A stretch of 32,000 nucleotides of DNA from Acaryochloris marina S15 (lineage in GTDB: Bacteria > Cyanobacteriota > Cyanobacteriia > Thermosynechococcales > Thermosynechococcaceae). The notes below the pieces were generated by a model. The model searched no databases. It was not told the DNA's origin and worked only from the letters and a program-made list of their open reading frames with translations. The stretch spans positions 270,001 to 302,000 of the forward strand of contig NZ_CP064924.1 in NCBI RefSeq assembly GCF_018336915.1, written 5' to 3'. Made by a program: the position numbers and the translations under genes. Below are positions 3,884-23,196 of the stretch, piece by piece (positions within the stretch are counted from its first letter, which is position 1; every line of letters starts with the position of its first letter).

Positions 3884-5362
3884 CTATGAAGATGAAGGAT
3901 TTTTGGCTTTGGGAAGTCCTAGTTTTTGGCGAAACGGATCTGAATAGGTGGCTATCTGCCAGTTCAAAGCTGCTTTTACTTGTGCTGGTGTGATTTCTAG
4001 CACCCCTTTGAGATCGGCCCCTTTGAGATCGGCCCCTTTGAGATCGGCCCCTTTGAGATTGGCCCCTTCGAGATCGGCCCCTTTGAGATTGGCCCCTTCG
4101 AGATTGGCCCTGTAGAGCTTGGCCCCTTCGAGATTGGCCCTGTAGAGCTTGGCCTCTTCGAGATTGGCCCCTTGGAGATCGGCCCCTTTGAGCTTGGCCC
4201 CTTCGAGATTGGCCCTGTAGAGCTTGGCCTCTTCGAGATTGGCCCCTTGGAGATCGGCCCCTTTGAGCTTGGCCCCTTCGAGATCGGCCCCTTTGAGATT
4301 GGCCCCTTCGAGATTGGCCCTGTAGAGCTTGGCCTCTTCGAGATTGGCCCCTTGGAGATTGGCCACTTGGAGATTGGCCCCGTAGAGATAGGCCCCTTTG
4401 AGATTGGCCCCTTCGAGATTGGCCCTGTAGAGCTTGGCCTCTTCGAGATAGGCCCCTTTGAGATTGGCCCCTTTGAGATTGGCCCCGTAGAGCTTGGCCC
4501 CTTTGAGATTGGCCCCTTTGAGATTGGCCCTGTAGAGATTGGCCTCTTCGAGATTGGCCCCTTTGAGATAGGCCCCTTTGAGATTGGCCCCTTGGAGATT
4601 GGCCCCTTTGAGATTGGCCCCGTAGAGCTTGGCCTCTTCGAGATTGGCCCCGTAGAGATTGGCCCCGTAGAGATTGGCTTTGGATAACTCGGAACTGCTG
4701 AGGTTCAGCTCAAGTCTGCTAATGATATGCGCTTCTATCAAAAAACGCATAACACTACCTTTTCTTACTGAGTCATCTTCAAATCTCCGCAGGATAGATA
4801 ATGTCCTGGCTCGAATAACATCCAATGAAGAATCTAATAGCTCTTGCTCTTCCCGTATTCCATCGGGCAGTTGTTGTGATTCTCCTTCGCCTGAACTCTT
4901 GGTGTCACGGACCTTTGCAGAAATAGCCAGCAAATTCTTGTCAACCAAGAGTACTGATAGTCTGTCAAAGTATCCTTGAAGAATTTCTTCCTTTGCTTCC
5001 TCAGAAGCCAGCTCTCGCTGCTCTCTTGCTGCTGCTTCAGCTTGCTTTAGCTGTATTTGCTGAAATAACACCCCAAGAATTGCTAATGTCAGTGGCACTC
5101 CCAGAAGGCTCATCCAATCCCAAAATGTCTTTCCATCGTCAAATGTGGTTGTTCTAGTTGTCTTTACAGGCTTGCCCAACTTATCTGTTTGGTCAGATTG
5201 AACCGTTTCAGTTGTAACAGACTTCCCTTTCTCAATCCCCCAGCCACCGGGCCATAGCGTTGATCTTAGGCTCCCAAACAGAGACAAAAATACAATGATG
5301 AGTAATGCCCCAAGGATGTTATTCCTTTGTTTGGGGTTGAGTATTACTCTAGGAAACTTCAT
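3884..5362 (-). CDS. Membrane-anchored pentapeptide-repeat protein; cargo of the inserted element
   Basis: 492-aa ORF with two hydrophobic segments (ILGALLIIVFLSLFG; LLGVPLTLAILGVLF) and a coiled charged linker. About 46 consecutive A(N/D/K/Y)Lxx pentapeptides follow. The C-terminal tail LEITPAQVKAALNWQIATYSDPFRQKLGL is shared with the two paralogs in the window. Confidence 0.9.
   Translation of the reverse strand: MKFPRVILNPKQRNNILGALLIIVFLSLFGSLRSTLWPGGWGIEKGKSVTTETVQSDQTDKLGKPVKTTRTTTFDDGKTFWDWMSLLGVPLTLAILGVLFQQIQLKQAEAAAREQRELASEEAKEEILQGYFDRLSVLLVDKNLLAISAKVRDTKSSGEGESQQLPDGIREEQELLDSSLDVIRARTLSILRRFEDDSVRKGSVMRFLIEAHIISRLELNLSSSELSKANLYGANLYGANLEEAKLYGANLKGANLQGANLKGAYLKGANLEEANLYRANLKGANLKGAKLYGANLKGANLKGAYLEEAKLYRANLEGANLKGAYLYGANLQVANLQGANLEEAKLYRANLEGANLKGADLEGAKLKGADLQGANLEEAKLYRANLEGAKLKGADLQGANLEEAKLYRANLEGAKLYRANLEGANLKGADLEGANLKGADLKGADLKGADLKGVLEITPAQVKAALNWQIATYSDPFRQKLGLPKAKNPSSS
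4004..4682. repeat. 15-bp tandem DNA repeat array (about 46 units) encoding the pentapeptide repeats
   Basis: Near-identical 15-mers such as GAGATTGGCCCCTTC, GAGATCGGCCCCTTT and GAGCTTGGCCTCTTC recur without interruption. The periodicity is visible directly in the nucleotide sequence and leaves long antisense frames open. Confidence 0.9.
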
Positions 5363-5539: not shown

Positions 5540-6142
5540 ATGATTTTCATCATTTCTGGTTTTGTGACACTAATTCTGGAGCAGCGTCAAATAATTCTGG
5601 AATGTACATTGAGTGAGGTTACCCTGATTGGGGCTAACCTGATTGGGGCTAGTCTGAGCGAGGCTAATCTGAGCGAGGCTAATCTGATTGGGGCTAACTT
5701 GAGTACAGTTGACCTGATTGGGGCTAACCTGATTGGGGCTAGTCTGAGCGAGGCTAATCTGAGCGAGGCTAATCTGAGCGAGGCTAACCTGAGTACAGTT
5801 GACCTGAGTGAGGCTAACATGAGTGAGGCTAATCTGCGTAAGGCTAACTTGAGTGGGGCTAACCTGTATAGGGCTAATCTGCGTAAGGTTAACCTTACTC
5901 AGGTTAACCTGATTAGGGCTGTCCTGAATGGGGCTAATTTGCGTAGGGCTAACCTGTATAGGGCTAACCTGAATGGGGCTAATTTGCGTAAGGCTAAAGA
6001 CATCACCCCAGACCAGGTCAAGGAAGCCACGAACTGGGAACAGGCAACCTACAGTGATGACTTCAAAGCCGAACTAGGACTAACAGCCATCCCTGAAGAA
6101 TCCACAGAAAACCCTGAAGAACAGCCCCCACCCCAAAATTAA
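5540..6142 (+). pseudogene. 3' fragment of the interrupted pentapeptide-repeat gene. The homologous part is 5614-6142. The first 24 codons are element-derived and create a possible chimeric ORF.
   Basis: Pentapeptide repeats (ANLIG, ASLSE, ANLSE and others) followed by KDITPDQVKEATNWEQATYSDDFKAELGL, the same tail as the paralogs. The N-terminus MIFIISGFVTLILEQRQIILECTL is encoded inside the right end of the element, including the TIR. Confidence 0.8.
5565..5608 (-). repeat. Right terminal inverted repeat of the inserted element
   Basis: Reverse complement matches 3663-3706 at 38 of 44 positions. The outer 14 and inner 15 nt are identical, and the mismatches cluster in the middle. Confidence 0.85.
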
Positions 6143-9515: not shown

Positions 9516-10043
9516 ATGCCAAATCTAAGACAGCTACTCTCTATCCTCCTTCCCCCTCTCCTTCTAGGATGCAGCCCACCCCCCAGCACCACGACCAACG
9601 ACATTAATCCGGTAAAGACAATCTCCTACACGGTTGTCAGCACTGGCGATGGCGATACCCTCAAAGTGCAATCTCAAGACGGTACATCGAGCAAAGTCCG
9701 TGTTGGATGTATTGATGCGCCTGAGTCCTCGCAGGAGTATGGACCGGAGGCAGGCCAAAGACTCAAGGTATTGCTACCCAGTGGAGCAACAATCGAGCTT
9801 CGGGAAATTGATATTGATCAATATGGTCGAACAGTGGCGGAGATCTATTCTGAGGGGAAATCGGTTGGGCTTCAGCTTGTCCGTGAAGGATATTCCGTGG
9901 TGTATCACCGTTACTTGGATGGGTGTTCTGATACAGCAGATCAGTATGTTGCTGCTGAGGAAGAGGCCAGATCTCAGAGATTGAATTTTTGGAGCCAGAG
10001 TGATCCGGTGATGCCGTGGGACTATCGGAGAGGGAAGCGGTAA
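9516..10043 (+). CDS. Staphylococcal-nuclease-like (thermonuclease/SNase) lipoprotein
   Basis: Lipobox LLLGC after a signal segment. The SNase-fold signature is present: GDGDTLKV...VRVGCIDAPES...GPEA...DQYGRTVAEI...G.SVGLQLVREGYSVVY. Confidence 0.85.
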   Translation: MPNLRQLLSILLPPLLLGCSPPPSTTTNDINPVKTISYTVVSTGDGDTLKVQSQDGTSSKVRVGCIDAPESSQEYGPEAGQRLKVLLPSGATIELREIDIDQYGRTVAEIYSEGKSVGLQLVREGYSVVYHRYLDGCSDTADQYVAAEEEARSQRLNFWSQSDPVMPWDYRRGKR

Positions 10044-10410
10044 TAGTGCTTTTAAGATAGTACTAAAGACCTATTACTTTAAAGCACTATTACTTTAAAG
10101 CACTATTACACTAAAGTCCTATTGCACTAAAAAACAATTAAGCTGAAGTAATATAATTTAATAGTGAAATTGTGCGAATATTTATTATTTCAAAAGTTCT
10201 ATTGCACTAAACTACTTTTGCACTAAACTACTATTTAGCTAAAGAGACTTATGCTAAAAGCCCCTAACTGTATAGATTCAAAGATTTTTGAAGGAGGTGT
10301 AGCAGAAGGGAACAAGCTTTATCTCCAATAATTTCAGAGAATTTTATAGATGATTACAGTGGAATAGAGCAACCTTCTTATTGCACTATTTTACTTTTGC
10401 ACTATACTGC
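10041..10410. repeat. Iteron-like repeats; candidate centromere (parS/parC), operator and/or origin region upstream of parA
   Basis: Four tandem 16-bp units lie at 10071-10134 (CTATTACTTTAAAGCA x2, CTATTACACTAAAGTC, CTATTGCACTAAAAAA). An inverted half site TAATAGTGC is at 10041-10049. Further copies lie at about 10199-10260 (CTATTGCACTAAA, CTACTTTTGCACTAAA, CTACTATTTAGCTAAAG) and about 10376-10410. An AT-rich spacer sits between the clusters. Related copies follow the partner gene at 11770-11803. Confidence 0.7.
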
Positions 10411-10478
10411 ATTAGTTCAGTAATGCTATTGATCTAGACATCTATCAGGCAAAAGTACCTTTCATCAAAAGCAGAATA

Positions 10479-11339
10479 ATGCCCAAACAAGCACCGACTC
10501 TTGTTCCTCTAGCGCTAGCAGGAGGACAAGGTAAAACCACAATTGCATTAATGACTGGGAGGATATTAGCGAGTTATGGCATCCCTGTACTATTTGTGGA
10601 TGCAGATCCACAAGCAAGTCTTACAGCTTTTCTTGGTGTAGACCCAGAAGATCGCCCAACTCTCTTGGAAGTTCTAACGCGATCTCCCGACAAACTACCT
10701 TTGTTCAAAGCCATACATGCTGTTCCAGAAAGTGAAAATATTTTTCTTATTCCATCTACTGATGAACTAGAGAATGCAAACCACTCATTAGCAGCATCAC
10801 CATCAAGTATCAATGTACTAAGAAATCGAATTCAACAAGTTGGCGAACAGGTAAAGAAAGAAGAAAAAATCACATCCAATTTTGGGATTATCATCATTGA
10901 CCCACCCCCAGAACGCTCACACCTTGCTCTCACTTCTCTGGGTAGTGGCGACTGCTGGGTTATTTGTGCCGAAGCTAATATTAAAGGTGTTCAATCACTC
11001 AAAAGAACAAAAGGATTAATTGAAACTTGTCAGTCAATGGTTCCTGCAGGTGAATTAATTGGGACAATACCTTTTCGAGCGAAATGGACTGGTTTGAACC
11101 CAACTAAAGTCACGAGAACCAACATTGAAGTCATGGAAGTCCTCGTTGGGAAAGATTTAATGCTTCCCCATGTATTAGAAAGTGATATTTACAAACGTGC
11201 AATAGACGAGCAAACTTTACCAGGAACACTGGGATATGAGCATTTAGAATTTCCGCTAAGGAGTCTTATCGAAAGAATGAGACCCTCACTCGGAAAATAC
11301 GCGAAGTCAATTCCAGTCTTGAATACGGAGGAAAATTAA
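10479..11339 (+). CDS. parA: ParA-family partition ATPase (small, type Ib-like)
   Basis: 286-aa ORF with a deviant Walker A context (LALAGGQGKTTIALMTG), then VLFVDADPQASLT and a Walker B-like IIIIDPPP. Confidence 0.85.
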   Translation: MPKQAPTLVPLALAGGQGKTTIALMTGRILASYGIPVLFVDADPQASLTAFLGVDPEDRPTLLEVLTRSPDKLPLFKAIHAVPESENIFLIPSTDELENANHSLAASPSSINVLRNRIQQVGEQVKKEEKITSNFGIIIIDPPPERSHLALTSLGSGDCWVICAEANIKGVQSLKRTKGLIETCQSMVPAGELIGTIPFRAKWTGLNPTKVTRTNIEVMEVLVGKDLMLPHVLESDIYKRAIDEQTLPGTLGYEHLEFPLRSLIERMRPSLGKYAKSIPVLNTEEN

Positions 11340-11767
11340 TGAGTCTCTTAGATAAGATTCGCCAGGAAACAGAAGTTCCTTCAGTCAAGGTTGAAACACG
11401 ACAGGATGCATTAATCGAGAATCTTGCAGAGGAAAACAACTCGACTCCACCACCATCGATCGATACCCATAAAGATATAGAAGCAAACTTATCAACAGAG
11501 CTTGCTTCATTTCCACCAATCGCTGACAAAAAGGTTGGTGTCAGATTAGAAGAGGATGTCCTTGCAGAATTGGAAGTTATTTGTAAGAAACACAAAATAA
11601 CGATAGAAACATTTCTTGAGGCCGCACTTAATGTCTGTCAACAAGATTCATCGGCAATGAATGCAGCCATAGGTGATGCTCAAACAAGACTCGCTAGGAG
11701 AAAAAGAGCAGGTACGATACGCTCAATTTTGACAAAATCTCAAAACTTATTTAAAAAAGAGCAATAG
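11339..11767 (+). CDS. Putative centromere-binding partition partner; ribbon-helix-helix-like (ParG/ParB functional analog)
   Basis: 142-aa ORF whose start overlaps the parA stop (TAATG). The central segment KKVGVRLEEDVLAELEVICKKHKITIETFLEAAL has the strand-helix-helix pattern of RHH DNA binders. Position and size fit a type Ib partner. The assignment is an inference. Confidence 0.5.
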   Translation: MSLLDKIRQETEVPSVKVETRQDALIENLAEENNSTPPPSIDTHKDIEANLSTELASFPPIADKKVGVRLEEDVLAELEVICKKHKITIETFLEAALNVCQQDSSAMNAAIGDAQTRLARRKRAGTIRSILTKSQNLFKKEQ

Positions 11768-12731: not shown

Positions 12732-13832
12732 TTGGATACCTCACAAAAAACTAGTCTAAACCCAACAAGATTACCCTTGCTGGTCTGTGGTAGCTTGCTC
12801 GTCGTCGCTCTACTGATAGGAGTTTGGAAATTACCCCAGCGTCAAGCATCCATGCTCAAACAGCGAATCGAGAGGGAAGAGAATACTGCGATTTCCCGCG
12901 AGAAACTATTTCAGCTTGAAAATACGACTCGTGAGAATTACTTGAAAATCATTCAATCATTTGGTGGACTTGGCTTTCTTTTGACAGGCTACTTTGCTTG
13001 GAGGAACTTGCAAATGGCTGAGAAAAATCGTGAACTTGCAGAGGGTAAGCAGGTAACAGAGCGCTTTAGCAAAGCTGTTGAACTTCTCTCCGATTCTAAG
13101 AAGCTTGAGGCCCGTATAGGTGGAATTTATATACTAGGCCGTATTGCTAATGATCATCCTAAAGATCAAATAACTGTGATGGAGGTACTAACAACCTTTA
13201 TTCGAGAAAAATCGTTAGGAAGTGACCTTGAATGCCAATGTGATGAAGAGTATAGTAACGCTGACATCCAATCTGCCCTTAATGTTATCGGCCGTCGTAA
13301 CGTTGAAAATGATGGAGTTAGAGGATTGTTTCTTTATGGTTCAAATCTAAGTGGTGTAGATCTTTGCGATACTAATTTCAGTAATACTGTCTTCAGTATG
13401 TGTGATCTCAGTAATGCCTATCTCCGTAAAACTAAGCTAATTAATACAAATTTTTCTGGTACTAAAATTAAAAAGACAAAGCTATGTGGAGCTTTTTTTA
13501 GTGGTGCTAACCTTAGCGGTGCTAACCTTAGCAGTACTGATCTAAGTGAATCTGATCTTACTGATGCTGACCTAAGTGAATCCGATCTAAGTGAATCTGA
13601 TCTTACTGATGCTGACCTAAGTGAATCCAATCTCACTGATGCTATTTTGAGTAGTGCCAACCTGAAGAGAGCTAACCTAAAAAGAGCAGATCTTCGTGAG
13701 ACTAAAGAAATAACTCCTAATCAGATCAAACAAGCAAGTAATTGGGAGCAAGCTCACTACAGCGACGATTTCAAAATTCAACTAGGACTATCAACCACCT
13801 CTGAAGAGTCAGCAGAAAAGCCCGAAGAATAG
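12732..13832 (+). CDS. Membrane-anchored pentapeptide-repeat protein; intact paralog of the interrupted gene
   Basis: 366-aa ORF with a TTG start. It has TM segments, then VTERFSKAVELLSDSKKLEARIGGIYILGRIANDHPKDQITVMEVLTTFIRE. Pentapeptide repeats follow (ANLSG, TDLSE, SDLTD, ADLSE and others), then the tail KEITPNQIKQASNWEQAHYSDDFKIQLGL. Confidence 0.85.
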   Translation: MDTSQKTSLNPTRLPLLVCGSLLVVALLIGVWKLPQRQASMLKQRIEREENTAISREKLFQLENTTRENYLKIIQSFGGLGFLLTGYFAWRNLQMAEKNRELAEGKQVTERFSKAVELLSDSKKLEARIGGIYILGRIANDHPKDQITVMEVLTTFIREKSLGSDLECQCDEEYSNADIQSALNVIGRRNVENDGVRGLFLYGSNLSGVDLCDTNFSNTVFSMCDLSNAYLRKTKLINTNFSGTKIKKTKLCGAFFSGANLSGANLSSTDLSESDLTDADLSESDLSESDLTDADLSESNLTDAILSSANLKRANLKRADLRETKEITPNQIKQASNWEQAHYSDDFKIQLGLSTTSEESAEKPEE

Positions 13833-14470
13833 TCCAACAAAATCGATCGACCATAAAAATCCCCTTTCTGCTCAATCTTAAATCCACCCAATAGCAGCCC
13901 AAGCCAAACCGCTACCAAAGGTAATCGAACTCCCCTCACCAGCTCCACAAACGACACCGCCCCCTTAGCCCCTTCCAAATACTCTCGGATCGCGCCCACC
14001 CATGCCCCCACATCTTCTACATGACTGACTTTCAGGGCAACTGCTTCCCCAGACTCCAGCTCATCGACAAACTCTAGAACCGCATCCTTACTAACTTCCC
14101 CCACAACAGACTCAACAGGAACCCCAGTGAACCCCTGGCGACTCTTCCGTGACTTCGGCTGACGACATAGATCCGAGACATCCAGAAACATCGTCTGCTG
14201 AATCATCCCAGCTAAGAAATCTTCATCCAACACTGGACCTTCTGAGTTGTATCTGTCTTCCCAACCCTGGATCATTAGCTCTGCCCGCTGCAAACAAACC
14301 TCAGCCATATCCTTGATCGCATCTCCAGCTACCCGGAGCTGTTCGTGGGGAGAACGGCCCTGTAGATGCTGCTCCAGTGAGGCACACATCAGGGAAATAT
14401 CAGCTTGCTCTGGTTCGTCTAAAGCAGAGGCCAAAGCACTGGCAAAATCAAGCTCAAGCTGAGTGAACAT
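13778..14470 (-). CDS. Hypothetical acidic protein
   Basis: 230-aa ORF, GC-rich, with its start overlapping the stop of the upstream ORF by 17 nt. Its 3' end overlaps the convergent pentapeptide gene by 55 nt. No family recognised. Confidence 0.55.
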   Translation of the reverse strand: MFTQLELDFASALASALDEPEQADISLMCASLEQHLQGRSPHEQLRVAGDAIKDMAEVCLQRAELMIQGWEDRYNSEGPVLDEDFLAGMIQQTMFLDVSDLCRQPKSRKSRQGFTGVPVESVVGEVSKDAVLEFVDELESGEAVALKVSHVEDVGAWVGAIREYLEGAKGAVSFVELVRGVRLPLVAVWLGLLLGGFKIEQKGDFYGRSILLDYSSGFSADSSEVVDSPS

Positions 14471-14981
14471 GGCGCTTATCCTTCAGTGGACATTCCGCAA
14501 TTTCACACTCGGTCGGTTCCATGCGGATCGGGGGTTCAAATTCTGTGATGCCATACCGATTGCCCAGCACCTTCAGCACCTCCTTCAAATACCGATTCAC
14601 TTGGGTATTCGTCATCCCCATACAGTGGACGGCTTCAATTTCCGCTAGCTTCTCACTCCCCTGCCAGACAGCGATAGCCAGAGCATGGAGGTGAGCATCC
14701 TTGGGCTTTTCCTTGTAAAGATAGAGCAAAGCCACGGGTGGGGCCAGGACGGGAATCGAGAAGGTTTCAGTGGTTTTTGCTGGCGCTGTTTTTGCTTTCT
14801 GGTCAGCGTATTCTCCTCGGCGCTTGGCATTGCTTTCTTTGCGGTGGCGATAGTGATTTCGTTTGCGATCGCAGGCATTATCCTTCCAGCACCCATCCCC
14901 TTGCGGCCCATGAACCCGCTTTGCTTCCATCCGGGAATAGTCGATGCATTGGAGGCAGATGGGGTTTGGAGGTAGTGGCAT
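14454..14981 (-). CDS. Hypothetical protein with a Cys-containing basic N-terminal region and a possible C-terminal HTH
   Basis: 175-aa ORF with CLQC...C...C followed by a Lys/Arg-rich stretch. The C-terminal part MTNTQVNRYLKEVLKVLGNRYGI is helix-turn-helix-like. The alternative-frame ORFs 14645-15022, 14685-14975 and 14738-15010 look like compositional shadows. Confidence 0.55.
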   Translation of the reverse strand: MPLPPNPICLQCIDYSRMEAKRVHGPQGDGCWKDNACDRKRNHYRHRKESNAKRRGEYADQKAKTAPAKTTETFSIPVLAPPVALLYLYKEKPKDAHLHALAIAVWQGSEKLAEIEAVHCMGMTNTQVNRYLKEVLKVLGNRYGITEFEPPIRMEPTECEIAECPLKDKRHVHSA

Positions 14982-15294
14982 GGTTCGTTCTTTTGGATCA
15001 ATACCCTTGAATAGATCATCAAAATCGAGGGGCTGACAGGACTAAATCAAACTAGTAAGCCATTAAAAAGCACTTAAAGAGGCAATAATTTCCATCCCCA
15101 CCAACGCCCTAGATTACAGAAATATCCTTAATAAATGCGTAAAGCATATCAAAAGTGCCGATAATTCTAGATGGGATTAAATTAAATTTCAAAATAGCGC
15201 TCCGTCATCATTAGCAATCTATCGCAGACCGTCAGTTCTATACGCTCAACCCAATAGAAAAAAGACAACAAAATATCCCTTAGATTAACGCTGA

Positions 15295-18200
15295 ATGACG
15301 AGTCCGAGCCCAGAACAGCAAACCATTCTATTTCTTGCCAGCAACCCTGATGGATTGCGACAAGTCGGACGAGAATTACGCGACATTAAAAACGGGTTAC
15401 GCAGATCTGAGCATCGAGATCAGTTCACTCTATGTCCCTGCCTGGATGTACGTACTAAAGATATTCAACGGGCATTATTGGATGAAACGCCTCAGATAAT
15501 TCACTTCGCTGGCAGTGGCAAAGGAGAAGCAGGACTCGTCTTTGAAGATCAAGCAGGCAATCCCAAACTTGTCGCAAGTGCAGCCCTAGCAGGTCTATTT
15601 ACTCTGTTTGCTGAGGACATCCACTGCGTCATTCTGAATGGGTGTTATACCCAGGTGCAAGCTCAAGCCATCGCTCAACATATTGATTATGTAGTAGGCA
15701 TGCAGCAGGCCATCAGCCACGAAGCGGCCCTGGCCTTTGCCGTGGGTTTCTATGATGCCTTGGGTGCAGGCCGAGACATTGAATTTGCCTTTAAGTTGGG
15801 ATGCAGTGCCATTCAAATAGAAGGCTTACCCGAATCTCTCACCCCGGTGTTGGTCCAAAAATCTAGCCTTCAATCCGCACCCCTCCACCCCTTACCCGAA
15901 CAGCAGACTCATGAAAAACTCTGGAAAGTGCCAGAGTTACCCCCCCACTTTTTACCGCGTCCTCAGACCCTAAAAGCCCTAAGAGAGAAGGTCCTTACGG
16001 ATCTAGCCCAGCCTGTCGTCATGACCGGGCAACGCGTCGGTGTTCAGGGTATGGGAGGCATTGGCAAGTCGGTGTTGGCCACAGCCCTAGCTCGTGACCC
16101 TCAAGTTCAATCGGCATTCCCTGACGGTATTTATTGGCTAACCGTGGGGATAGAACCCAACCTACTGGCTCAGCAAATCGCTCTAGCAGCAGCCCTCTGT
16201 GGTGAACGCCAGGTATTTGAAGATATCAATGAAGGGAAAAACCGCCTCCAAACCCTATGGCAAGGACGCCAAAGTCTATTGATTCTAGATGATGTCTGGT
16301 GCATCGCGGATGCTGACGTCTTCAATGTCCTGGGACATCAAAGTACCTTGGTAGTGACGACCCGTGACTCAGAATTAATCACAGGATTAGGGGCCACTGA
16401 CTTTTCCCTTTCGGTACTCCATGAGGATCAGGCGCTGGAGTTATTAGCCGCCTGGGTGGGCGTCCCCATCTCAGATCTACCCTCCCAAGCCCAGGAAGTA
16501 GCAAGAGAATGTGGCAACTTGCCCTTAGCCCTGGCCCAATGTGGTGCAATGGTGCGAGATTTAACCCCTTGGCCCCATGTTCTCAGTGCCTTACAAGATT
16601 CAGATCTTGAATTTATCCAAAAACAGTTTAGTCATTATTCCTACCCCGATGTCTTCAAAGCCCTGCATGTCAGTGCAACGGTCTTAGCAGAAACCAACCC
16701 CATCGCTGCCGAACGCTATCAAGAACTGGCAGTGTTTCCAGCCGATGAATTGATTCCTGAAGCAGTCATTGTTCGCCTATGGCAATATACCGGAGTATTA
16801 AAGGAGCGAGATGCGGGCAAAATCCTAACCACCTTATCGAGTAAAGCCATGCTGCGGCTAGAGGGGGACTATCCCCAGCGGCAAGTCAGCCTCCATGACT
16901 TACAGCAGGATTATTTACAAGCCCAGCAAGCCGACCAGAAGGCATTGCATCAGCAACTTCTGGAGGCTTATCACCAGGGCTGTCCAGAGGGATGGCATTG
17001 TGGACCGAAGGACGGGTATTTCTTTGAGCATTTGGCCCATCACCTCCAGCAGGCAGAACGCACCGATGAGTTACGGCAATTACTCTGGGACTATCGTTGG
17101 ATTCAACGCAAATTGGGAGTCACTGATATCAATGCCCTGCTATTGGACTATGAAACCTTACCCAAGGACCAAGACCTCAACAGTGTCCACAGTGGGTTAC
17201 GGTTATCTAGCCATGTATTAAATCAGCATCCTGAGCAGCTTCCCAGTCAGCTCTTTGGGCGTTTGATGAGTCAAGATTCACCCCATGTGACCGCATTGAC
17301 TCAATCTTTAGCTCAGGGACCGGGAGAATGCTGGATACGGTGTCTATTCCCCCATCTCAACCAAGCGGGGGGAGCATTAGTGCGCACCCTCACCGGACAT
17401 ACTTCCACTGTCTATGGCGTGAGCATCAGCCCCGATGGCCAAACCGTAGTCTCCGCGTCTTGGGACCAGACCCTGAAGGTGTGGGACCTGGAGACGGGCC
17501 AGGAGCAGCGCACCCTCACCGGACATACTAGCCTTGTCAATGGCGTGAGCATCAGCCCCGATGGCCAAACCGTAGTCTCCGCGTCTTGGGACAAGACCCT
17601 GAAGGTATGGGACCTGGCGACGGGCCAGGAGCAGCGCACCCTCACCGGACATATTGCCTCTGTCAATGGCGTGAGCATCAGCCCCGATGGCCAAACCGTA
17701 ATCTCCGCATCTAGTGACCATACCCTGAAGGTGTGGGATCTGGAGACGGGCCAGGAACAGCGCACCCTCACCGGACATACTGACTATGTCGAGGGCGTGA
17801 GCATCAGCCCCGATGGCCAAACCGTAGTCTCCGCGTCTAGGGACCAGACCCTGAAGGTGTGGGACCTGGAGACGGGCCAGGAGCAGCGCACCCTCACCGG
17901 ACATACTGACCCTGTCTATGGCGTCAGCATCAGCTCCGATGGCCAAACCGTAGTCTCCGCGTCTGGTGACCAGACCCTGAAGGTGTGGGACCTGGCGACG
18001 GGCCAGGAGCAGCGCACCCTCACCGGACATACTGCCTCTGTCGAGGGCGTGAGCATCAGCTCCGATGGCCAAACCGTAGTCTCCGCGTCTGGTGACCATA
18101 CCCTGAAGGTGTGGGACCTGGAGACGGGCCAGGAGCAGCGCACCCTCACCGGACATACTGCCTCTGTCGAGGGCGTGAGCATCAGCTCCGATGGCCAAAC

Positions 18201-19293
18201 CGTGGTCTCCGCGTCTGATGACCATACCCTGAAGGTGTGGGACCTGGAGACGGGCCAGGAGCAGCGCACCCTCACCGGACATACTGCCTCTGTCGAGGGC
18301 GTGAGCATCAGCTCCGATGGCCAAACCGTAGTCTCCGCGTCTGGTGACCATACCCTGAAGGTGTGGGACCTGGAGACGGGCCAGGAGCAGCGCACCCTCA
18401 CCGGACATACTTCCCTTGTCCATGGCGTGAGCATCAGCCCCGATGGCCAAACCGTAGTCTCCGCGTCTAAGGACCAGACCCTGAAGGTGTGGGACCTGGA
18501 GACGGGCCAGGAGCAGCGCACCCTCACCGGACATACTGCCTCTGTCACTGGCGTCAGCATCAGCCCCGATGGCCAAACCGTCGTCTCCGCGTCTTGGGAC
18601 AATACCCTGAAGGTGTGGGACCTGGAGACGGGCCAGGAGCAGCGCACCCTCACCGGACATACTGCCTATGTCACTGGCGTGAGCATCAGCCCCGATGGCC
18701 AAACCCTTGTCTCCACGTCTTTGGACAAGACCCTGAAGGTGTGGGACCTGGAGACGGGCCAGGAGCAGCGCACCCTCACCGGGCATACTGACCCTGTCAC
18801 TGGCGTGAGCATCAACCCCGATGGCCAAACCGTCGTCTCCGCGTCTTGGGACTGTACCCTGAAGGTGTGGGACCTGGAGACGGGCCAGGAGCAGCGCACC
18901 CTCACCGGACATACTTCCACTGTCACTGGCGTCAGCATCAGCCCCGATGGCCAAACCGTCGTCTCCGCGTCTTGGGACTGTACCCTGAAGGTGTGGGACC
19001 TGGAGACGGGCCAGGAGCAGCGCACCCTCACCGGACATACTGCCCCTGTCAATGGCGTGAGCATCAGCCCCGATGGCCAAACCCTTGTCTCCGCGTCTGA
19101 TGACCATACCCTGAAGGCATGGGACCTGCTGACCGGCATGGAAGTGATGAGCTTCACGGGAGAAGGTGCATTTCAATGTTGTGAGATTGCCCTAGATGGT
19201 CGCACCGTCATTGCTGGAGATGCTGGGGGACAGCTTTACTTTCTGCGGCTAGAAGGCCCCAGCTTTTCAGACGACGGGGAGGTTATCTCATGA
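15295..19293 (+). CDS. Apaf-1/NLR-like STAND NTPase: N-terminal caspase/CHAT-like domain, NB-ARC, then 14 near-identical WD40 repeats and 1 degenerate one
   Basis: 1332 aa.
- N-terminal domain (about 190 aa) has a caspase-like strand/helix pattern with IIHFAGSG ... VILNGCYT.
- NB-ARC motifs: P-loop GMGGIGKS, Walker B LLILDDVW, VVTTRD, a GLPL-type GNLPLAL, and an MHD-type LHD (VSLHDLQ).
- C-terminus: 14 x 42-aa units LTGHTxxVxGVSISPDGQTVVSASxDxTLKVWDLETGQEQRT plus a degenerate 15th blade. Confidence 0.9.
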   Translation: MTSPSPEQQTILFLASNPDGLRQVGRELRDIKNGLRRSEHRDQFTLCPCLDVRTKDIQRALLDETPQIIHFAGSGKGEAGLVFEDQAGNPKLVASAALAGLFTLFAEDIHCVILNGCYTQVQAQAIAQHIDYVVGMQQAISHEAALAFAVGFYDALGAGRDIEFAFKLGCSAIQIEGLPESLTPVLVQKSSLQSAPLHPLPEQQTHEKLWKVPELPPHFLPRPQTLKALREKVLTDLAQPVVMTGQRVGVQGMGGIGKSVLATALARDPQVQSAFPDGIYWLTVGIEPNLLAQQIALAAALCGERQVFEDINEGKNRLQTLWQGRQSLLILDDVWCIADADVFNVLGHQSTLVVTTRDSELITGLGATDFSLSVLHEDQALELLAAWVGVPISDLPSQAQEVARECGNLPLALAQCGAMVRDLTPWPHVLSALQDSDLEFIQKQFSHYSYPDVFKALHVSATVLAETNPIAAERYQELAVFPADELIPEAVIVRLWQYTGVLKERDAGKILTTLSSKAMLRLEGDYPQRQVSLHDLQQDYLQAQQADQKALHQQLLEAYHQGCPEGWHCGPKDGYFFEHLAHHLQQAERTDELRQLLWDYRWIQRKLGVTDINALLLDYETLPKDQDLNSVHSGLRLSSHVLNQHPEQLPSQLFGRLMSQDSPHVTALTQSLAQGPGECWIRCLFPHLNQAGGALVRTLTGHTSTVYGVSISPDGQTVVSASWDQTLKVWDLETGQEQRTLTGHTSLVNGVSISPDGQTVVSASWDKTLKVWDLATGQEQRTLTGHIASVNGVSISPDGQTVISASSDHTLKVWDLETGQEQRTLTGHTDYVEGVSISPDGQTVVSASRDQTLKVWDLETGQEQRTLTGHTDPVYGVSISSDGQTVVSASGDQTLKVWDLATGQEQRTLTGHTASVEGVSISSDGQTVVSASGDHTLKVWDLETGQEQRTLTGHTASVEGVSISSDGQTVVSASDDHTLKVWDLETGQEQRTLTGHTASVEGVSISSDGQTVVSASGDHTLKVWDLETGQEQRTLTGHTSLVHGVSISPDGQTVVSASKDQTLKVWDLETGQEQRTLTGHTASVTGVSISPDGQTVVSASWDNTLKVWDLETGQEQRTLTGHTAYVTGVSISPDGQTLVSTSLDKTLKVWDLETGQEQRTLTGHTDPVTGVSINPDGQTVVSASWDCTLKVWDLETGQEQRTLTGHTSTVTGVSISPDGQTVVSASWDCTLKVWDLETGQEQRTLTGHTAPVNGVSISPDGQTLVSASDDHTLKAWDLLTGMEVMSFTGEGAFQCCEIALDGRTVIAGDAGGQLYFLRLEGPSFSDDGEVIS
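17389..19152 (+). repeat. 14 tandem 126-bp repeats, in frame, encoding WD40 blades
   Basis: Direct inspection shows an exact 126-bp period starting at CTCACCGGACATAC. Units 6-8 are nearly identical at the DNA level. Differences between units fall in a few codons. Confidence 0.95.
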
Positions 19294-19429: not shown

Positions 19430-20527
19430 ATGACTGCCCAAACCATTCTCTTTCTCGCTGCGAATCCCAAAGATACTAAGACTCTTCGATTGGATCAGGA
19501 GTTAAGGGATATTGGTGAGGGTTTACAGCAGGCTCAACGTCGAGATGAGTTTAAGCTTGAACAGCGCCTGGCGGTTCGCCCCCATGATATTCAGCGGGCC
19601 ATGCTAGATCTGAATCCCCAGATCGTTCATTTCTCAGGCCATGGGAATGGGGATGAGGGCTTGGCCTTTGAGGATGTCAGTGGTAATACCCAGTTGGTCA
19701 GTGGTGAGGCGATTGCTGACCTGTTTAGCCTGTTTGCCGATCAACTGCGCTGCGTAGTCCTCAATGGCTGCTATACCGAGGTGCAAGCAAAGGCCATCTC
19801 GGAACATATTCCCTATGTTATCGGTATGAAACGGGCGATTGGGGATAAAGCGGCGATCTCCTTTGCCGTGGGATTCTATGATGCCCTGGGCTCTGGTCGA
19901 GATGTGGAGTTTGCCTTTAAGTTGGGCTGTGCCGCTATCCGCATGGAAGGCATTGAAGAACATCTCACCCCCGTTCTGATTAAAAAGCCCATTACTGAGG
20001 AAACTAAGGATCAGGATCAACCCAATGCTCAAACTCCTCCAACACCCGCGCCTTCTCCCATGACTCCAGACGCCGATGGACCCTTAGAGGTCTTTATTTC
20101 CTATTCCCATAAAGACGATGATTTACGAGAAGAGTTAGACATCCATCTTTCCAATCTGAAACGACAGGGGAAAATTGCTGCTTGGCATGATCGGGCGATT
20201 GAAGCAGGGGAAGAATGGGAAGCTCAAATCAAAGGCCATCTGGAGTCCGCTCAAATCATTCTGCTACTGGTCAGCCCACCCTTTATGGCCTCTGACTATT
20301 GCTACGACATTGAGATGCAACGAGCGATAGACCGCCATAACGAAGGCACAGCCCGAGTCATCCCTATTATTCTGCGTCCCTGTGACTGGAAAGGGTCACC
20401 CTTCAGTAAGCTGAAGATACTCCCTAAAGATGCCAAGCCCGTGACGAAATGGGCTGATCGCGATGAGGCATTCTTGGATGTCGTCAAAGGAATACGGAGG
20501 GCGGTAGAGTCCCTGACAAAAAAGTAG
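19430..20527 (+). CDS. Caspase/CHAT-like domain fused to a TIR domain (putative effector)
   Basis: The N-terminal domain is about 60% identical (100/163 positions, hand alignment) to the N-terminus of 15295-19293, but has an intact HFSGHG ... VLNGCYT dyad pattern. A Pro/Thr linker follows, then a TIR signature: VFISYSHKDD...GKIAAWHDRAIEAGEEW...IILLLVSPPFMASDYCYDIEMQRA, with a conserved Glu candidate. The preferred start is ATG 19430 (MTAQTILFLAANP, parallel to the MTSPSPEQQTILFLASNP N-terminus of 15295-19293) rather than the ORF-track GTG 19388. Confidence 0.85.
   Translation: MTAQTILFLAANPKDTKTLRLDQELRDIGEGLQQAQRRDEFKLEQRLAVRPHDIQRAMLDLNPQIVHFSGHGNGDEGLAFEDVSGNTQLVSGEAIADLFSLFADQLRCVVLNGCYTEVQAKAISEHIPYVIGMKRAIGDKAAISFAVGFYDALGSGRDVEFAFKLGCAAIRMEGIEEHLTPVLIKKPITEETKDQDQPNAQTPPTPAPSPMTPDADGPLEVFISYSHKDDDLREELDIHLSNLKRQGKIAAWHDRAIEAGEEWEAQIKGHLESAQIILLLVSPPFMASDYCYDIEMQRAIDRHNEGTARVIPIILRPCDWKGSPFSKLKILPKDAKPVTKWADRDEAFLDVVKGIRRAVESLTKK
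20518..20524 (+). promoter_or_regulatory. Candidate -1 ribosomal frameshift or slippage site: A AAA AAG followed immediately by a 0-frame TAG
   Basis: The last two sense codons of the TIR ORF are AAA AAG preceded by A. This is the same heptamer as the E. coli dnaX -1 site. The -1 frame is open from 20467 and runs without a stop into the NB-ARC-TPR ORF. GGAGG lies about 17-21 nt upstream. No convincing downstream hairpin was found by eye. Confidence 0.35.
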
Positions 20528-20676: not shown

Positions 20677-23196
20677 TTGCACCAGCTCCTCCAAAAGAAC
20701 AATCCAGTAGCCCTTACTGCATTAGCAGGCATGGGTGGGATCGGAAAGACTGAACTTGCCCTGCAATATGCCATCTCCCAGCTCGATCAGGGTCAGTACC
20801 CTGGAGGACTTTGCTGGCTGCGAGTGAAAGGCCAGGCTCTAGCTGCCCAAATTATCGAATTTGCCCGGACCAAGTTGGCACTGGCCCTTCCGGATGGACT
20901 CAATGAAGATCAACAGGTGAGTTATATCTGGGGGCAATGGCCCACCGGAAAGGTGCTGATTATTTTTGATGATGTAAAGGACCTTGAGACCATCGAACCG
21001 TACTTACCGCCGTCAGACCCACGGTATAAAGTACTGATTACAACCCGACAGGATTTAGGTCTATCCGATCATTCCCTTTCCATTAAAGAACTGAGCGATA
21101 CCAGTGCCTTATCCCTGCTGAGAACCCTAGTTGGAGCAGACCGAATTGATGCTCAGCTCGACGATGCTCAAGCCTTATGTGGATGGGTGGGTAAATTGCC
21201 CTTAGGACTAGAGTTAGTGGGACGGTATCTAGCCAGAAAGCCAGACTGGTCCCTCCAAAAGCTGATCAAGCGACTTGAATCCAAGCGATTACAAGCCAAA
21301 GCCCTGACGACTCCAGCATCAGGAATGACCGCACAGTTTGGGGTCGCTGCTGCACTGGAATTAAGCTGGGTAGAGCTGAATGAGGCAGAGCAGGAACTGG
21401 CTTGCTTTTTGGGGATGTTTGCGGTTGCTCCTATTCCTTGGACTTTGGTTGAAGGATGTCTATCCGAACAGGATAAGGATGACTTAGAAGACATCAGAGA
21501 TGAAGGTTTGAAAGATAGGAACCTACTCAAACGAATAGAAGAGAGTACCTACCAACTCCATCAAATTGTTCAGGAGTTCTTTCGGATTAAGTTGAATGAG
21601 GATTCCGAACAGGGGAAATCCCTCAAAGCCGCTTATTGCAGAGGAATGGTTGCAGTTGCTCAGGGTATTAATCAGAATCCAACGATTGATGTGATTGCAG
21701 GGATGAGTGCCAGCATTCCCCATCTAGAGGAACTGATCCGACAGTGGATTGACCACCTCGGTGATGATGAATTGATGTGGCCCTATGTCGGTATTGGTCG
21801 ATTTTATGAAGGGCAAGGGAACTATGCATTGGCTTTACCTTGGTATCAAAAATGCCTAGAACAGACTCAACAAAGATTGGGCAATGAACACACCGATGTC
21901 GCAACTAGCCTCAATAACCTGGCAGGACTCTACAAAAACCAAGGACGATATGAGGAAGCAGAACCCCTCTATACACAAGCCCTACAGATGAGACAGAAGC
22001 CATTGGGCAATGAACACCCCGATGTCGCAACTAGCCTCAATAACCTGGCATTACTCTACGACAGCCAAGGACGGTATGAGGAGGCAGAACCCCTCTATAC
22101 ACAAGCCCTACAGATGACACAGAAGCTCTTGGGCAATGAACACCCCGATGTCGCTCTTAGCCTCAATAACCTGGCAGGACTCTACGACAACCAAGGACGG
22201 TATGAGGAGGCAGAACCCCTCTATACACAAGCCCTACAGATGAAAAAGAAGCTCTTGGGCAATGAACACCCCTCTGTCGCAAGTAGCCTCAATAACCTGG
22301 CAGGACTCTACAAAAACCAAGGACGGTATGAGGAGGCAGAACCCCTCTATACACAAGCCCTACAGATGACACAGAAGCTCTTGGGCAATGAACACCCCTC
22401 TGTCGCAAGTAGCCTCAATAACCTGGCAGCACTCTACGAGAACCAAGGACGGTATGAGGAGGCAGAACCCCTCTATACACAAGCCCTACAGATGAGACAG
22501 AAGCTCTTGGGCAATGAACACCCCTATGTCGCGACTAGCCTCAATAACCTGGCAGGACTCTACAAAAACCAAGGACGGTATGAGGAGGCAGAACCCCTCT
22601 ATACACAAGCCCTACAGATGACACAGAAGCTCTTGGGCAATGAACACCCCTCTGTCGCAAGTAGCCTCAATAACCTGGCAGCACTCTACGACAACCAAGG
22701 ACGGTATGAGGAGGCAGAACCCCTCTATACACAAGCCCTACAGATGAGACAGAAGCTATTGGGCAATGAACACCCCGATGTCGCAACTAGCCTCAATAAC
22801 CTGGCATTACTCTACGACAACCAAGGACGGTATGAGGAGGCAGAACCCCTCTATACACAAGCCCTGCAGATGAAAAAGAAGCTCTTGGGCAATGAACACC
22901 CCTCTGTCGCAAGTAGCCTCAATAACCTGGCAGGACTCTACAAAAACCAAGGACGGTATGAGGAGGCAGAACCCCTCTATACACAAGCCCTACAGATGAG
23001 ACAGAAGCTCTTGGGCAATGAACACCCCTCTGTCGCGACTAGCCTCAATAACCTGGCATTACTCTACAAAAACCAAGGACGGTATAAGGAGGCCAAATCT
23101 AATTTAAAGCAAGCACTAAAGATAGTAGAGGTCGTCTTGGGTCCAGAGCATCCTTCTACTCGGACCATGCGAAACAACTTAGAGTCCATCCCCTAG
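20677..23196 (+). CDS. NB-ARC STAND NTPase with a C-terminal TPR array (kinesin-light-chain-type 42-aa units). The coding frame is open upstream to 20467 with no start codon.
   Basis: P-loop GMGGIGKTELA, Walker B VLIIFDDV, ITTRQ, a GLPL-type GKLPLGLE, and an MHD-position LHQ. About 10 units follow of the form LLGNEHPxVAxSLNNLAxLYxNQGRYEEAEPLYTQALQMxxK. The ORF-track TTG start (20677) falls inside the conserved pre-P-loop helix ...GVVEFVGREQTLQDL|HQLLQ. The real N-terminus therefore lies upstream. Confidence 0.85.
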   Translation: MHQLLQKNNPVALTALAGMGGIGKTELALQYAISQLDQGQYPGGLCWLRVKGQALAAQIIEFARTKLALALPDGLNEDQQVSYIWGQWPTGKVLIIFDDVKDLETIEPYLPPSDPRYKVLITTRQDLGLSDHSLSIKELSDTSALSLLRTLVGADRIDAQLDDAQALCGWVGKLPLGLELVGRYLARKPDWSLQKLIKRLESKRLQAKALTTPASGMTAQFGVAAALELSWVELNEAEQELACFLGMFAVAPIPWTLVEGCLSEQDKDDLEDIRDEGLKDRNLLKRIEESTYQLHQIVQEFFRIKLNEDSEQGKSLKAAYCRGMVAVAQGINQNPTIDVIAGMSASIPHLEELIRQWIDHLGDDELMWPYVGIGRFYEGQGNYALALPWYQKCLEQTQQRLGNEHTDVATSLNNLAGLYKNQGRYEEAEPLYTQALQMRQKPLGNEHPDVATSLNNLALLYDSQGRYEEAEPLYTQALQMTQKLLGNEHPDVALSLNNLAGLYDNQGRYEEAEPLYTQALQMKKKLLGNEHPSVASSLNNLAGLYKNQGRYEEAEPLYTQALQMTQKLLGNEHPSVASSLNNLAALYENQGRYEEAEPLYTQALQMRQKLLGNEHPYVATSLNNLAGLYKNQGRYEEAEPLYTQALQMTQKLLGNEHPSVASSLNNLAALYDNQGRYEEAEPLYTQALQMRQKLLGNEHPDVATSLNNLALLYDNQGRYEEAEPLYTQALQMKKKLLGNEHPSVASSLNNLAGLYKNQGRYEEAEPLYTQALQMRQKLLGNEHPSVATSLNNLALLYKNQGRYKEAKSNLKQALKIVEVVLGPEHPSTRTMRNNLESIP
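21871..23130 (+). repeat. About 10 tandem 126-bp repeats, in frame, encoding TPR pairs
   Basis: Exact 126-bp periodicity with very high DNA identity between units. The last unit diverges in its second half. Confidence 0.9.

Follow-up and report, generated by a model that had tools for sequence, protein, structure and literature searches.

Bacterial STAND proteins that join an AP-ATPase or NB-ARC module to WD40 repeats and carry an N-terminal caspase-like domain were reportedly described by Koonin and Aravind in 2002. The animal apoptosome recruits a separate caspase through a CARD, and the bacterial caspase-STANDs have been read as 'all-in-one' direct receptors (PMC13581612). Apaf-1-like STANDs with an N-terminal caspase-like or CHAT domain are known from cyanobacteria, where the domain was read as the direct effector (PMC13581612, Nature 2026). 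Here we describe a locus of Acaryochloris marina S15 in which the N-terminal CHAT domain of such a sensor lacks the catalytic histidine, while the next gene encodes a paralogous CHAT domain with a His-Cys dyad, joined to a TIR domain. The window is a stretch of 32,000 nucleotides from contig NZ_CP064924.1 (positions 270,001 to 302,000, forward strand), and the coordinates below are counted from its first letter. The stretch is best explained as carrying a plasmid-borne, three-gene, Apaf-1-like conflict cassette; its role is probably anti-phage defense or cell suicide, although this immune role is inferred. Our reading of how the cassette works, to which we give a probability of roughly 0.5, is that the pseudo-protease on the apoptosome-like sensor docks or activates the CHAT-TIR effector by CHAT-CHAT contact.

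The core of the cassette consists of genes 1, 2 and 3, all in the same direction, with the following features:

15295 to 19293, + strand: gene 1, an Apaf-1-like STAND sensor of 1332 amino acids (aa), recognized by its Pfam domains and P-loop
15295 to 15870, + strand: N-terminal CHAT domain of gene 1, a predicted pseudo-CHAT (Pfam CHAT, PADLOC chat, AlphaFold2 model, codon reading, membership of a His-less clade)
15514 to 15516, + strand: Ser74 of gene 1 (AGT) at the catalytic His position, codon read directly
15643 to 15645, + strand: Cys117 of gene 1, kept
about 16030 to 16674, + strand: NB-ARC domain of gene 1, after a linker (P-loop GMGGIGKS; Pfam 2.7e-27)
about 16939 to 17163, + strand: APAF1_C helical domain of gene 1 (Pfam 7.9e-13)
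17382 to 19128, + strand: WD40 array of gene 1 with 14 repeats (Pfam WD40 in 14 stretches); the 126-bp unit is present in 13.9 copies, 93% identical
19430 to 20527, + strand: gene 2, the CHAT-TIR protein, 365 aa from the ATG (Pfam, PADLOC)
19430 to 19990, + strand: intact CHAT domain of gene 2, 186 aa, with the family-conserved D22 and D139 present
19640 to 19642, + strand: His71 of gene 2 (CAT), codon read directly
19769 to 19771, + strand: Cys114 of gene 2
about 20090 to 20524, + strand: ThsB-like TIR domain of gene 2 (Pfam TIR_2 2.6e-16; PADLOC ThsB1 6.1e-63)
20677 to 23196, + strand: gene 3, an NB-ARC-TPR STAND whose NB-ARC begins at residue 3 of the open reading frame (ORF), without an N-terminal effector domain
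21877 to 23093, + strand: TPR array of gene 3, 9.7 copies of a 126-bp unit at 93% identity

Gene 2 was taken to start at the ATG at 19430, the start also chosen by the Prokaryotic Genome Annotation Pipeline (PGAP) in homologous plasmids. A Pro/Thr-rich linker joins its CHAT and TIR domains. The TIR domain retains the motif SDYCYDIEM, which aligns with SDWCWD-EL of the Cat1 TIR, and the Glu of this motif is presumed to be the catalytic residue. The WD40 propeller of gene 1 is presumed to be its ligand-sensing part. Gene 3 is a conserved third gene of the cassette, found also on pMB06, pREB7 and pREB8 and at loci L032, L033 and L037.

Residues 1-190 of the sensor and 1-186 of the TIR protein are paralogous. 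The two regions were identical at 109 of 187 positions (58%), near the 100 of 163 that an earlier note on this DNA had counted by hand, and BLASTP of the N-terminal regions (118/222 identities, E 2e-83) confirmed the note's claim that one domain is shared by both proteins. Its motif readings were exact (IIHFAGSGKG in the sensor, IVHFSGHGNG in the partner and LNGCYT in both), and its statement that the NTPase modules of the island are far more divergent holds, since 30% identity over 194 aa (E 5e-10) is all that the NB-ARC domains of genes 1 and 3 share. CHAT is the sole module common to genes 1 and 2. The two copies are most alike, at 69% identity, in their C-terminal third; made up of two helices and the final strand, this region is a candidate for the interface. 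A recent local duplication giving rise to genes 1 and 2 was rejected because each copy has much closer relatives elsewhere (81% identity for the partner copy and 87% for the sensor copy, compared to 58% between the two).

Both domains have the CHAT/caspase fold. The Pfam CHAT model (PF12770, caspase-hemoglobinase fold of clan CD, gathering cutoff 24 bits) scored 40.1 bits on the partner and 27.0 bits on the sensor, and the PADLOC 'chat' model matched them at 5.8e-27 and 9.6e-17, respectively; NCBIfam yielded no family for the sensor domain. The sole significant match in a sequence search of the PDB was the SAVED-CHAT protease 8tl0 (E 1.5e-16), and the match was restricted to its CHAT part, chain residues 289-455. 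AlphaFold2 monomer models built from 41-sequence alignments had predicted local distance difference test (pLDDT) values of 88.9 for the partner and 85.8 for the sensor, with an identical order of strands and helices. In the partner model, strand 1 spans residues 4-11 (TILFLAAN), strand 3 residues 65-70, up to the GHG, and strand 4 residues 108-112, up to the GC; in both models the GHG or GSG motif comes after strand 3 and the Cys after strand 4, which bears out the caspase-fold strand order proposed from the sequence. A Foldseek search, made with the partner model only, returned 8tl0 as the top match (E 1e-11, query-normalized TM-score (TMq) 0.79), followed by caspases-4, 8, 9, 6, 3 and 7 at E of about 1e-4.

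The positions of the dyad were fixed by comparison with the same protease. His and Cys of the partner align in HMMER with chain residues 355 and 402 of 8tl0. These correspond to H375 and C422; the two numberings differ by a constant 20, and the spacing is 47 in each. A SAVED-CHAT H375A/C422A double mutant has no protease activity (8tl0), although the His is not isolated by that mutant. Because the His and Cys align with this tested dyad, the change at Ser74 of the sensor is a His-to-Ser change at the catalytic His; the earlier observation that the sensor had lost the His and kept the Cys was correct. The partner copy has the complete dyad (H71, C114). From these alignments the partner CHAT is predicted to be catalytically intact and the sensor CHAT to be a catalytically dead pseudo-protease.

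The domain belongs to a very large family. An HMMER scan of 50%-identity cluster representatives gave 13131 matches at E<=1e-3 and 3715 at E<=1e-30, and most of the close relatives are cyanobacterial proteins of 190-310 aa, frequently with EAD1 or EAD9 tails. In an alignment of the 169 nearest homologues with the two copies of the stretch, HFSGHG was present in 152 of the 171 sequences and the Cys was invariant. The exceptions, which read HFAG[S/N/R/Q]G, clustered among the nearest relatives of the sensor, and their C-terminal tails run into a gene 1-type linker and NB-ARC P-loop. The CHAT-NB-ARC-WD40 proteins, full or partial, that a search with the first 560 residues of the sensor brought up at 62-73% identity were all His-less; the search also found a second CHAT-NB-ARC group, at 45-52% identity, that retains HFSGHG. 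A specific tie between the Ser variant and NB-ARC fusions, raised in the earlier note, was upheld in part: loss of the His marks one CHAT-NB-ARC-WD40 clade, in which the residue is S, N, R or Q, but other CHAT-NB-ARC fusions keep the His. The His was lost in 11 of 24 CHAT domains followed by a P-loop, compared to 25 of 301 otherwise (Fisher p 6e-6, kinship ignored), and about 10 of these 25 are truncated members of the same clade. A scan of metagenome contigs with the N-terminus of the sensor found ordinary CHAT proteins and NB-ARC relatives only, with no further His-less loci. In two proteins, P0234 and P0213, a sensor-type His-less CHAT (70-74% identical to the sensor copy) is fused to EAD1 plus TIR and to a GUN4-like domain; the existence of these fusions indicates that the pseudo-CHAT module has been shuffled onto other partners.

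When the 19 His-less members of the clade were compared to 187 His-bearing relatives, position 71 was found to be R in six, N in six, S in five and Q in two, while Cys114 was retained in all 19. Residues that are 86-98% conserved in the relatives were also replaced in the clade (T16, L19, R20, L21, D22, S69, A136, G138 and D139). T16 and L19 to D22 lie in the loop after strand 1, which carries a one-residue deletion in the clade, and A136, G138 and D139 lie in the loop after strand 5. In the alignment D22 and D139 fall on acidic residues of SAVED-CHAT. They lie where strands 1 and 5 end on their C-terminal side, which, judging from the topology, would be the place at which enzymes of the caspase fold form the substrate pocket. 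D139 is usually lost in other, independent His-less variants as well, and the catalytic Cys is kept in nearly all copies that lack both the His and D139, independent lineages included. Because family-conserved loop residues were replaced along with the His, what the alignment records in this clade is a coordinated active-site loss, beyond a single substitution.

These data bear on the view that the sensor CHAT is still a protease, working with the retained Cys and a non-canonical general base, which would make gene 1 an ordinary 'all-in-one' caspase-STAND. The persistence of the Cys, throughout the clade and in almost all other His-less variants, is what such an enzyme would be expected to show, as is the purifying selection described below. 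However, the residue at the His position varies among S, N, R and Q, so no replacement base is conserved there; the loop residues near the active site, D22 and D139 included, were lost concurrently; and the SAVED-CHAT double mutant is inactive, with the reservation about the His given above. We consider residual protease activity of the sensor very unlikely.

Copies of the cassette were found in the present stretch, on pMB04 and pMB06 ('Moss Beach' strain) and on pREB7 and pREB8 (A. marina MBIC11017). The sensor motif is HFAGSG in four of these five cassettes and HFAGRG in pREB7; the partner motif is HFSGHG in all five. Pairwise ratios of nonsynonymous to synonymous substitution rates (dN/dS) among the five lay between 0.12 and 0.38 for the sensor CHAT and between 0.07 and 0.20 for the partner CHAT. 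By this measure the sensor copy is somewhat relaxed, yet clearly under purifying selection. The ratios, far under 1, argue against the sensor CHAT being a relic, that is, a decaying former effector that now lacks a function and resembles gene 2 by shared ancestry only. It is true that the sensor CHAT evolves about twice as fast as the partner CHAT and that many copies of the cassette carry frameshifts or truncations; against this, the domain is full-length, members of the clade are 62-78% identical across distant cyanobacteria, and the clade has conserved residues of its own (G20, L21, R22, K32 and I109). We give the relic view very little credence.

The damaged copies include split homologous sensors at L029 (5298-9172), L032, L033 (6347-8900), L037 (1477-5569) and L039 (9001-12724), and the sensor of pMB06 is also frameshifted or truncated. 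The break falls variously in the CHAT domain, the linker, the P-loop or the WD40 region. A programmed frameshift between CHAT and NB-ARC was rejected on these grounds; since the break points differ between loci, the splits are attributed to decay or to assembly errors. Sensor length varies among the plasmid copies as well, from 787 aa on pMB04 through 1293 aa on pREB7 and pREB8 to 1332 aa in the present stretch. The variation suggests that repeat units have been gained and lost, as happens in fungal NLRs whose repeats are of high internal conservation.

The arrangement of a His-less sensor followed by an intact CHAT is conserved and is met again in many cyanobacteria. In 11 of 13 His-less loci, a His-bearing CHAT gene is the next gene downstream on the same strand. 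The 13 loci take in the present stretch, four plasmids, both cassettes of L032 and loci from metagenomes or metagenome-assembled genomes (MAGs); the pairing occurs at L028 to L031, L032 (two cassettes), L033, L034, L037 and L039, while the loci without it, L036 and L038, are cut short or interrupted by an insertion sequence. The non-CHAT module of the partner varies (TIR, TRADD-N plus TIR, HetE-N-like or unknown), and an NB-ARC-TPR gene usually comes next. Representative layouts are:

L033: a sensor with Asn, followed by CHAT(H)-TRADD-N-TIR and next by NB-ARC-TPR
L037: a sensor with Ser, followed by HetE-N-like-CHAT(H) and next by NB-ARC-TPR
L032: the L037 layout twice in tandem
L034/L035: truncated sensor (Asn), directly followed by CHAT(H)-unknown
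L039: sensor (Arg), then CHAT-TIR

A constant CHAT beside a variable remainder is the pattern expected if CHAT were the coupling module and the rest the payload. In contrast, the His-bearing CHAT-NB-ARC fusions with readable flanks (L040, L041 and L006) have no adjacent second CHAT gene in the cassette arrangement; L042, which is without downstream sequence, was left out of these controls. L040 does have a CHAT-FGE gene on the opposite strand about 5 kb upstream, beside retroelement genes, and this was taken as a separate system. There (L040, 440-4232) a CHAT-FGE-sulfatase protein adjoins a reverse transcriptase and bAvd, in what looks like a diversity-generating retroelement.

In metagenomic cassettes, a small ORF of 46 aa, MTDPITLTASAIASLAFQEFIKSGAGELAKKFTGEAIAKMGQLREL, is conserved some 65 nt upstream of the His-less sensors (L033 6140-6280, L034 7794-7934 and L035 132-272), and remnants of it occur in L032 and L037. 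The ORF is similar to the N-terminal helices of the HetE-N-like partners and is absent upstream of the present sensor.

Two further observations extend the pairing beyond this clade. In an independent lineage (L090), P0397, a CHAT(HFCGQG)-STAND-TPR protein with another type of P-loop, adjoins a gene for CHAT(HFSGHG)-TRADD-N-AAA_26-DRTGG. Moreover, of 26 proteins with two or three complete CHAT copies in tandem (examples are P0291-P0301, P0305, P0310, P0319 and P0392), 20 combine intact and degenerate copies, five have all copies intact and one has none intact, compared to 289 intact among 325 single-copy CHAT proteins (Fisher p 4e-7). The degenerate copy is the second in 14 of the mixed proteins and the first in six. 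This suggests that the pairing of an intact with a degenerate copy is a general property of this CHAT subfamily. Adjacency and tandem copies together lend comparative-genomic support to the idea, put forward in the earlier note, of a homotypic adaptor or a pseudo-protease and protease pair. More tentatively, and with less confidence than we have in docking itself, the working unit of the subfamily may be a heterodimer of an intact and a degenerate CHAT, of which the sensor would carry the dead half and recruit the caspase-TIR executioner by induced proximity.

The same pairing weighs against the suggestion that the dead CHAT is an integrated decoy, a bait for a phage inhibitor or protease aimed at the CHAT proteases of the cell and thus a sensing surface with no link to an effector. 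A family this large and this strongly conserved, with 13131 representatives and many members at 70-80% identity, is a plausible target for an invader, and inactive enzyme copies have been discussed as decoys by Kaur et al. (PMC7159879). A decoy would explain neither why a His-bearing CHAT gene with variable effector modules lies so close by nor why intact and degenerate copies are joined in tandem; in addition, the CHAT occupies the canonical effector or adaptor position of a sensor that already has a hypervariable-type WD40 array. We regard it as improbable.

Another alternative draws on the very evidence that supports docking. The pseudo-CHAT might form a heterodimer that holds CHAT-TIR inactive, in the dominant-negative manner of short cFLIP, until activation of the sensor frees the effector. 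Dominant-negative or peptide-binding roles were proposed for inactive caspase domains of conflict systems by Kaur et al. 2020 (PMC7159879). STAND N-terminal domains, however, normally work through oligomerization and not release, and the sequence offers nothing that separates activation from inhibition. We think such a brake unlikely, though less so than a decoy.

In the docking reading, the precedent is the SAVED-CHAT protease, which is active once its sensor domains polymerize and the CHAT domains contact one another (8tl0). Gene 1 would be a STAND sensor with a dead CHAT, gene 2 the effector and gene 3 a second sensor without an effector domain. Binding of a ligand by the repeats would lead to NTP-dependent oligomerization of the sensor and hence to clustering of the pseudo-CHAT domains, which would then dock the CHAT of gene 2 through homotypic caspase-fold contacts; proximity would switch on the partner protease, the oligomerization-dependent TIR NAD hydrolase (NADase) or both. 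The pseudo-CHAT would fill the place that a CARD has in Apaf-1, an EAD in the systems of Kaur and Aravind, or a cFLIP-type pseudo-caspase has for caspase-8. TIR NADases generally require oligomerization, and it is because of this need, together with the activation of SAVED-CHAT by polymerization, that a sequence of oligomerization, docking and activation is proposed.

Several points weigh against this reading. The physical CHAT-CHAT pairing and its sign, activation or inhibition, are drawn from genomic evidence. Inheritance of the cassette as a unit from a common ancestor would also explain the adjacency. The loci lack phylogenetic independence, being in effect a single large clade and one further lineage, and the control set of partnerless His-bearing sensors amounts to only about three loci. 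The partner CHAT is an ordinary member of its very large conserved family, up to 81% identical to stand-alone proteins, with no obvious specialization toward the sensor copy. A pure adaptor role does not account for the Cys that nearly all His-less copies retain, nor does the docking reading account for gene 3. Finally, with so many metagenomic and plasmid sensors frameshifted or truncated, some cassettes may be decaying.

The surroundings of the cassette include ParA, a staphylococcal-type nuclease, pentapeptide-repeat proteins, a hybrid histidine kinase and GroEL, and the DNA of the stretch is 87-93% identical to conjugative or mobilizable Acaryochloris plasmids. The region 9516-11767, with a homologue of staphylococcal nuclease, a ParA-type ATPase (10479-11339) and an overlapping ORF of 142 aa, resembles a plasmid partition region and is consistent with a plasmid origin of the stretch. 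Three pentapeptide-repeat proteins lie within 10 kb (3884-5362 on the - strand, 5540-6142 and 12732-13832), and pentapeptide-repeat genes flank the cassette on pMB04 and in L033 too. Two overlapping hypothetical ORFs of 230 and 175 aa (13778-14470 and 14454-14981, both on the - strand) lie divergently upstream of the sensor and gave no Pfam match. At least 13 Acaryochloris plasmids, many of them lacking the cassette, carry conserved copies of this DNA, so these ORFs probably belong to the plasmid backbone and lie outside the system.

Our literature search, the coverage of which was incomplete, returned no account of a His-less CHAT clade on Apaf-1-like sensors with an adjacent intact CHAT-effector gene, none of an intact and degenerate bias in tandem CHAT proteins, and no description of a pseudo-CHAT or pseudo-caspase on bacterial NLRs. 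If the CHAT domains do pair, this would supply a concrete mechanism of effector recruitment for a large class of cyanobacterial STAND systems, explain why intact plus degenerate tandems are common, and extend the control of caspases by pseudo-caspases beyond animals. At about 185 aa, the CHAT domains are small and soluble and suited to biochemistry.

Among known systems, the cassette shares with type IV Thoeris, in which a TIR signal activates a caspase-like protease (bioRxiv 10.1101/2024.10.24.620036), the presence of a ThsB-like TIR and a caspase-fold protease in a single defense unit. Here, however, TIR and CHAT are fused and lie between two STAND sensors, and there is no evidence for a diffusible signal. 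The neighbors are STAND NTPases, a histidine kinase and hypothetical proteins, with no ThsA-type effector (SIR2/SLOG, Macro-TM or stand-alone caspase) among them, although small ORFs were not all scanned. Pairs of an NLR gene and an effector gene that share an amyloid motif are known from fungal HET-S/NWD2 and bacterial BASS; CHAT and TIR2 were listed as such effectors, and two-gene layouts were contrasted with 'all-in-one' layouts (bioRxiv 10.1101/2020.01.06.895854). The present cassette likewise has two genes, with the N-terminus of the NLR matching a module on the adjacent effector, but the module is a folded 185-aa domain of enzyme type and not an amyloid-forming motif of roughly 20-40 aa.

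The EAD principle, in which adaptor domains are common to the effectors and the NTPase that serves as their core (Kaur et al. 2020, PMC7159879; 2021, PMC8195603), applies here insofar as one module is shared by the STAND sensor and a neighbor with variable effectors. The shared module differs in being a caspase-fold domain of 185 aa, inactive on one side and intact on the other, and no small helical Death-like adaptor. Genes 1-3 gave no Pfam EAD match (EAD1-EAD12) at E<=0.01, and gene 1, whose N-terminus is CHAT, gave no CARD, Death-like or EAD Pfam match. Kaur et al. 2020 (PMC7159879) noted inactive caspase domains beside active ones in the vWA-MoxR-VMAP systems, which are unrelated to the cassette. 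A constant caspase with many alternative effector modules is common to the cassette and to two kinds of system of Kaur et al., the EACC1-caspase 'System 4' and the VMAP ternary systems; those systems are mainly actinobacterial, whereas the core here is an Apaf-1-like STAND and there is no EACC1, vWA, MoxR or VMAP gene. At the place of a 5' EACC1 gene (14941-15300), all three forward frames are broken by stops, with no small ORF. SAVED-CHAT, a type III-B CRISPR-associated protease with an oligomeric scaffold and CHAT-CHAT contacts (8tl0), is the nearest solved relative both in sequence and in fold, with the dyad aligned. In the cassette there is no SAVED Pfam match and no cyclic-oligoadenylate sensing; the scaffold would be a STAND oligomer, and one CHAT is dead by its sequence. 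Membership in an EAD, Death-like, SAVED or EACC1 system was rejected because the components are absent from the cassette.

Pairs of a pseudo-caspase and a caspase are exemplified by cFLIP with caspase-8, and separase combines pseudo-protease and active protease domains. The CHAT pairs likewise set a degenerate caspase fold beside an intact paralogue, in trans in the cassette and in cis in the 20 of 26 tandem proteins, but the CHAT subfamily is unrelated in detail, the pairing is deduced from genomics only and recruitment would not go through DED or CARD. cFLIP itself is a DED protein with an inactive caspase domain (PMC8195603). With the Apaf-1-like caspase-STANDs, gene 1 shares NB-ARC, APAF1_C and WD40, a caspase fold in place of the CARD and a cyanobacterial host. 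It differs from them in an N-terminal domain without the catalytic His and further conserved residues of the active-site loops, and in the separate gene for an intact CHAT effector that comes next, a partner gene that the His-bearing all-in-one STANDs (L006, L040 and L041) do not have. The cassette and its clade suggest a design intermediate between the apoptosome and the all-in-one receptors, in which a receptor with a dead caspase fold stands beside a separate, live caspase-fold protein that carries the executioner module. If the more tentative heterodimer reading is true, the oligomerized sensor would act as an apoptosome, and this would be a CARD-independent route to the logic of Apaf-1 and caspase-9 and a bacterial counterpart of the cFLIP/caspase-8 or separase pair.

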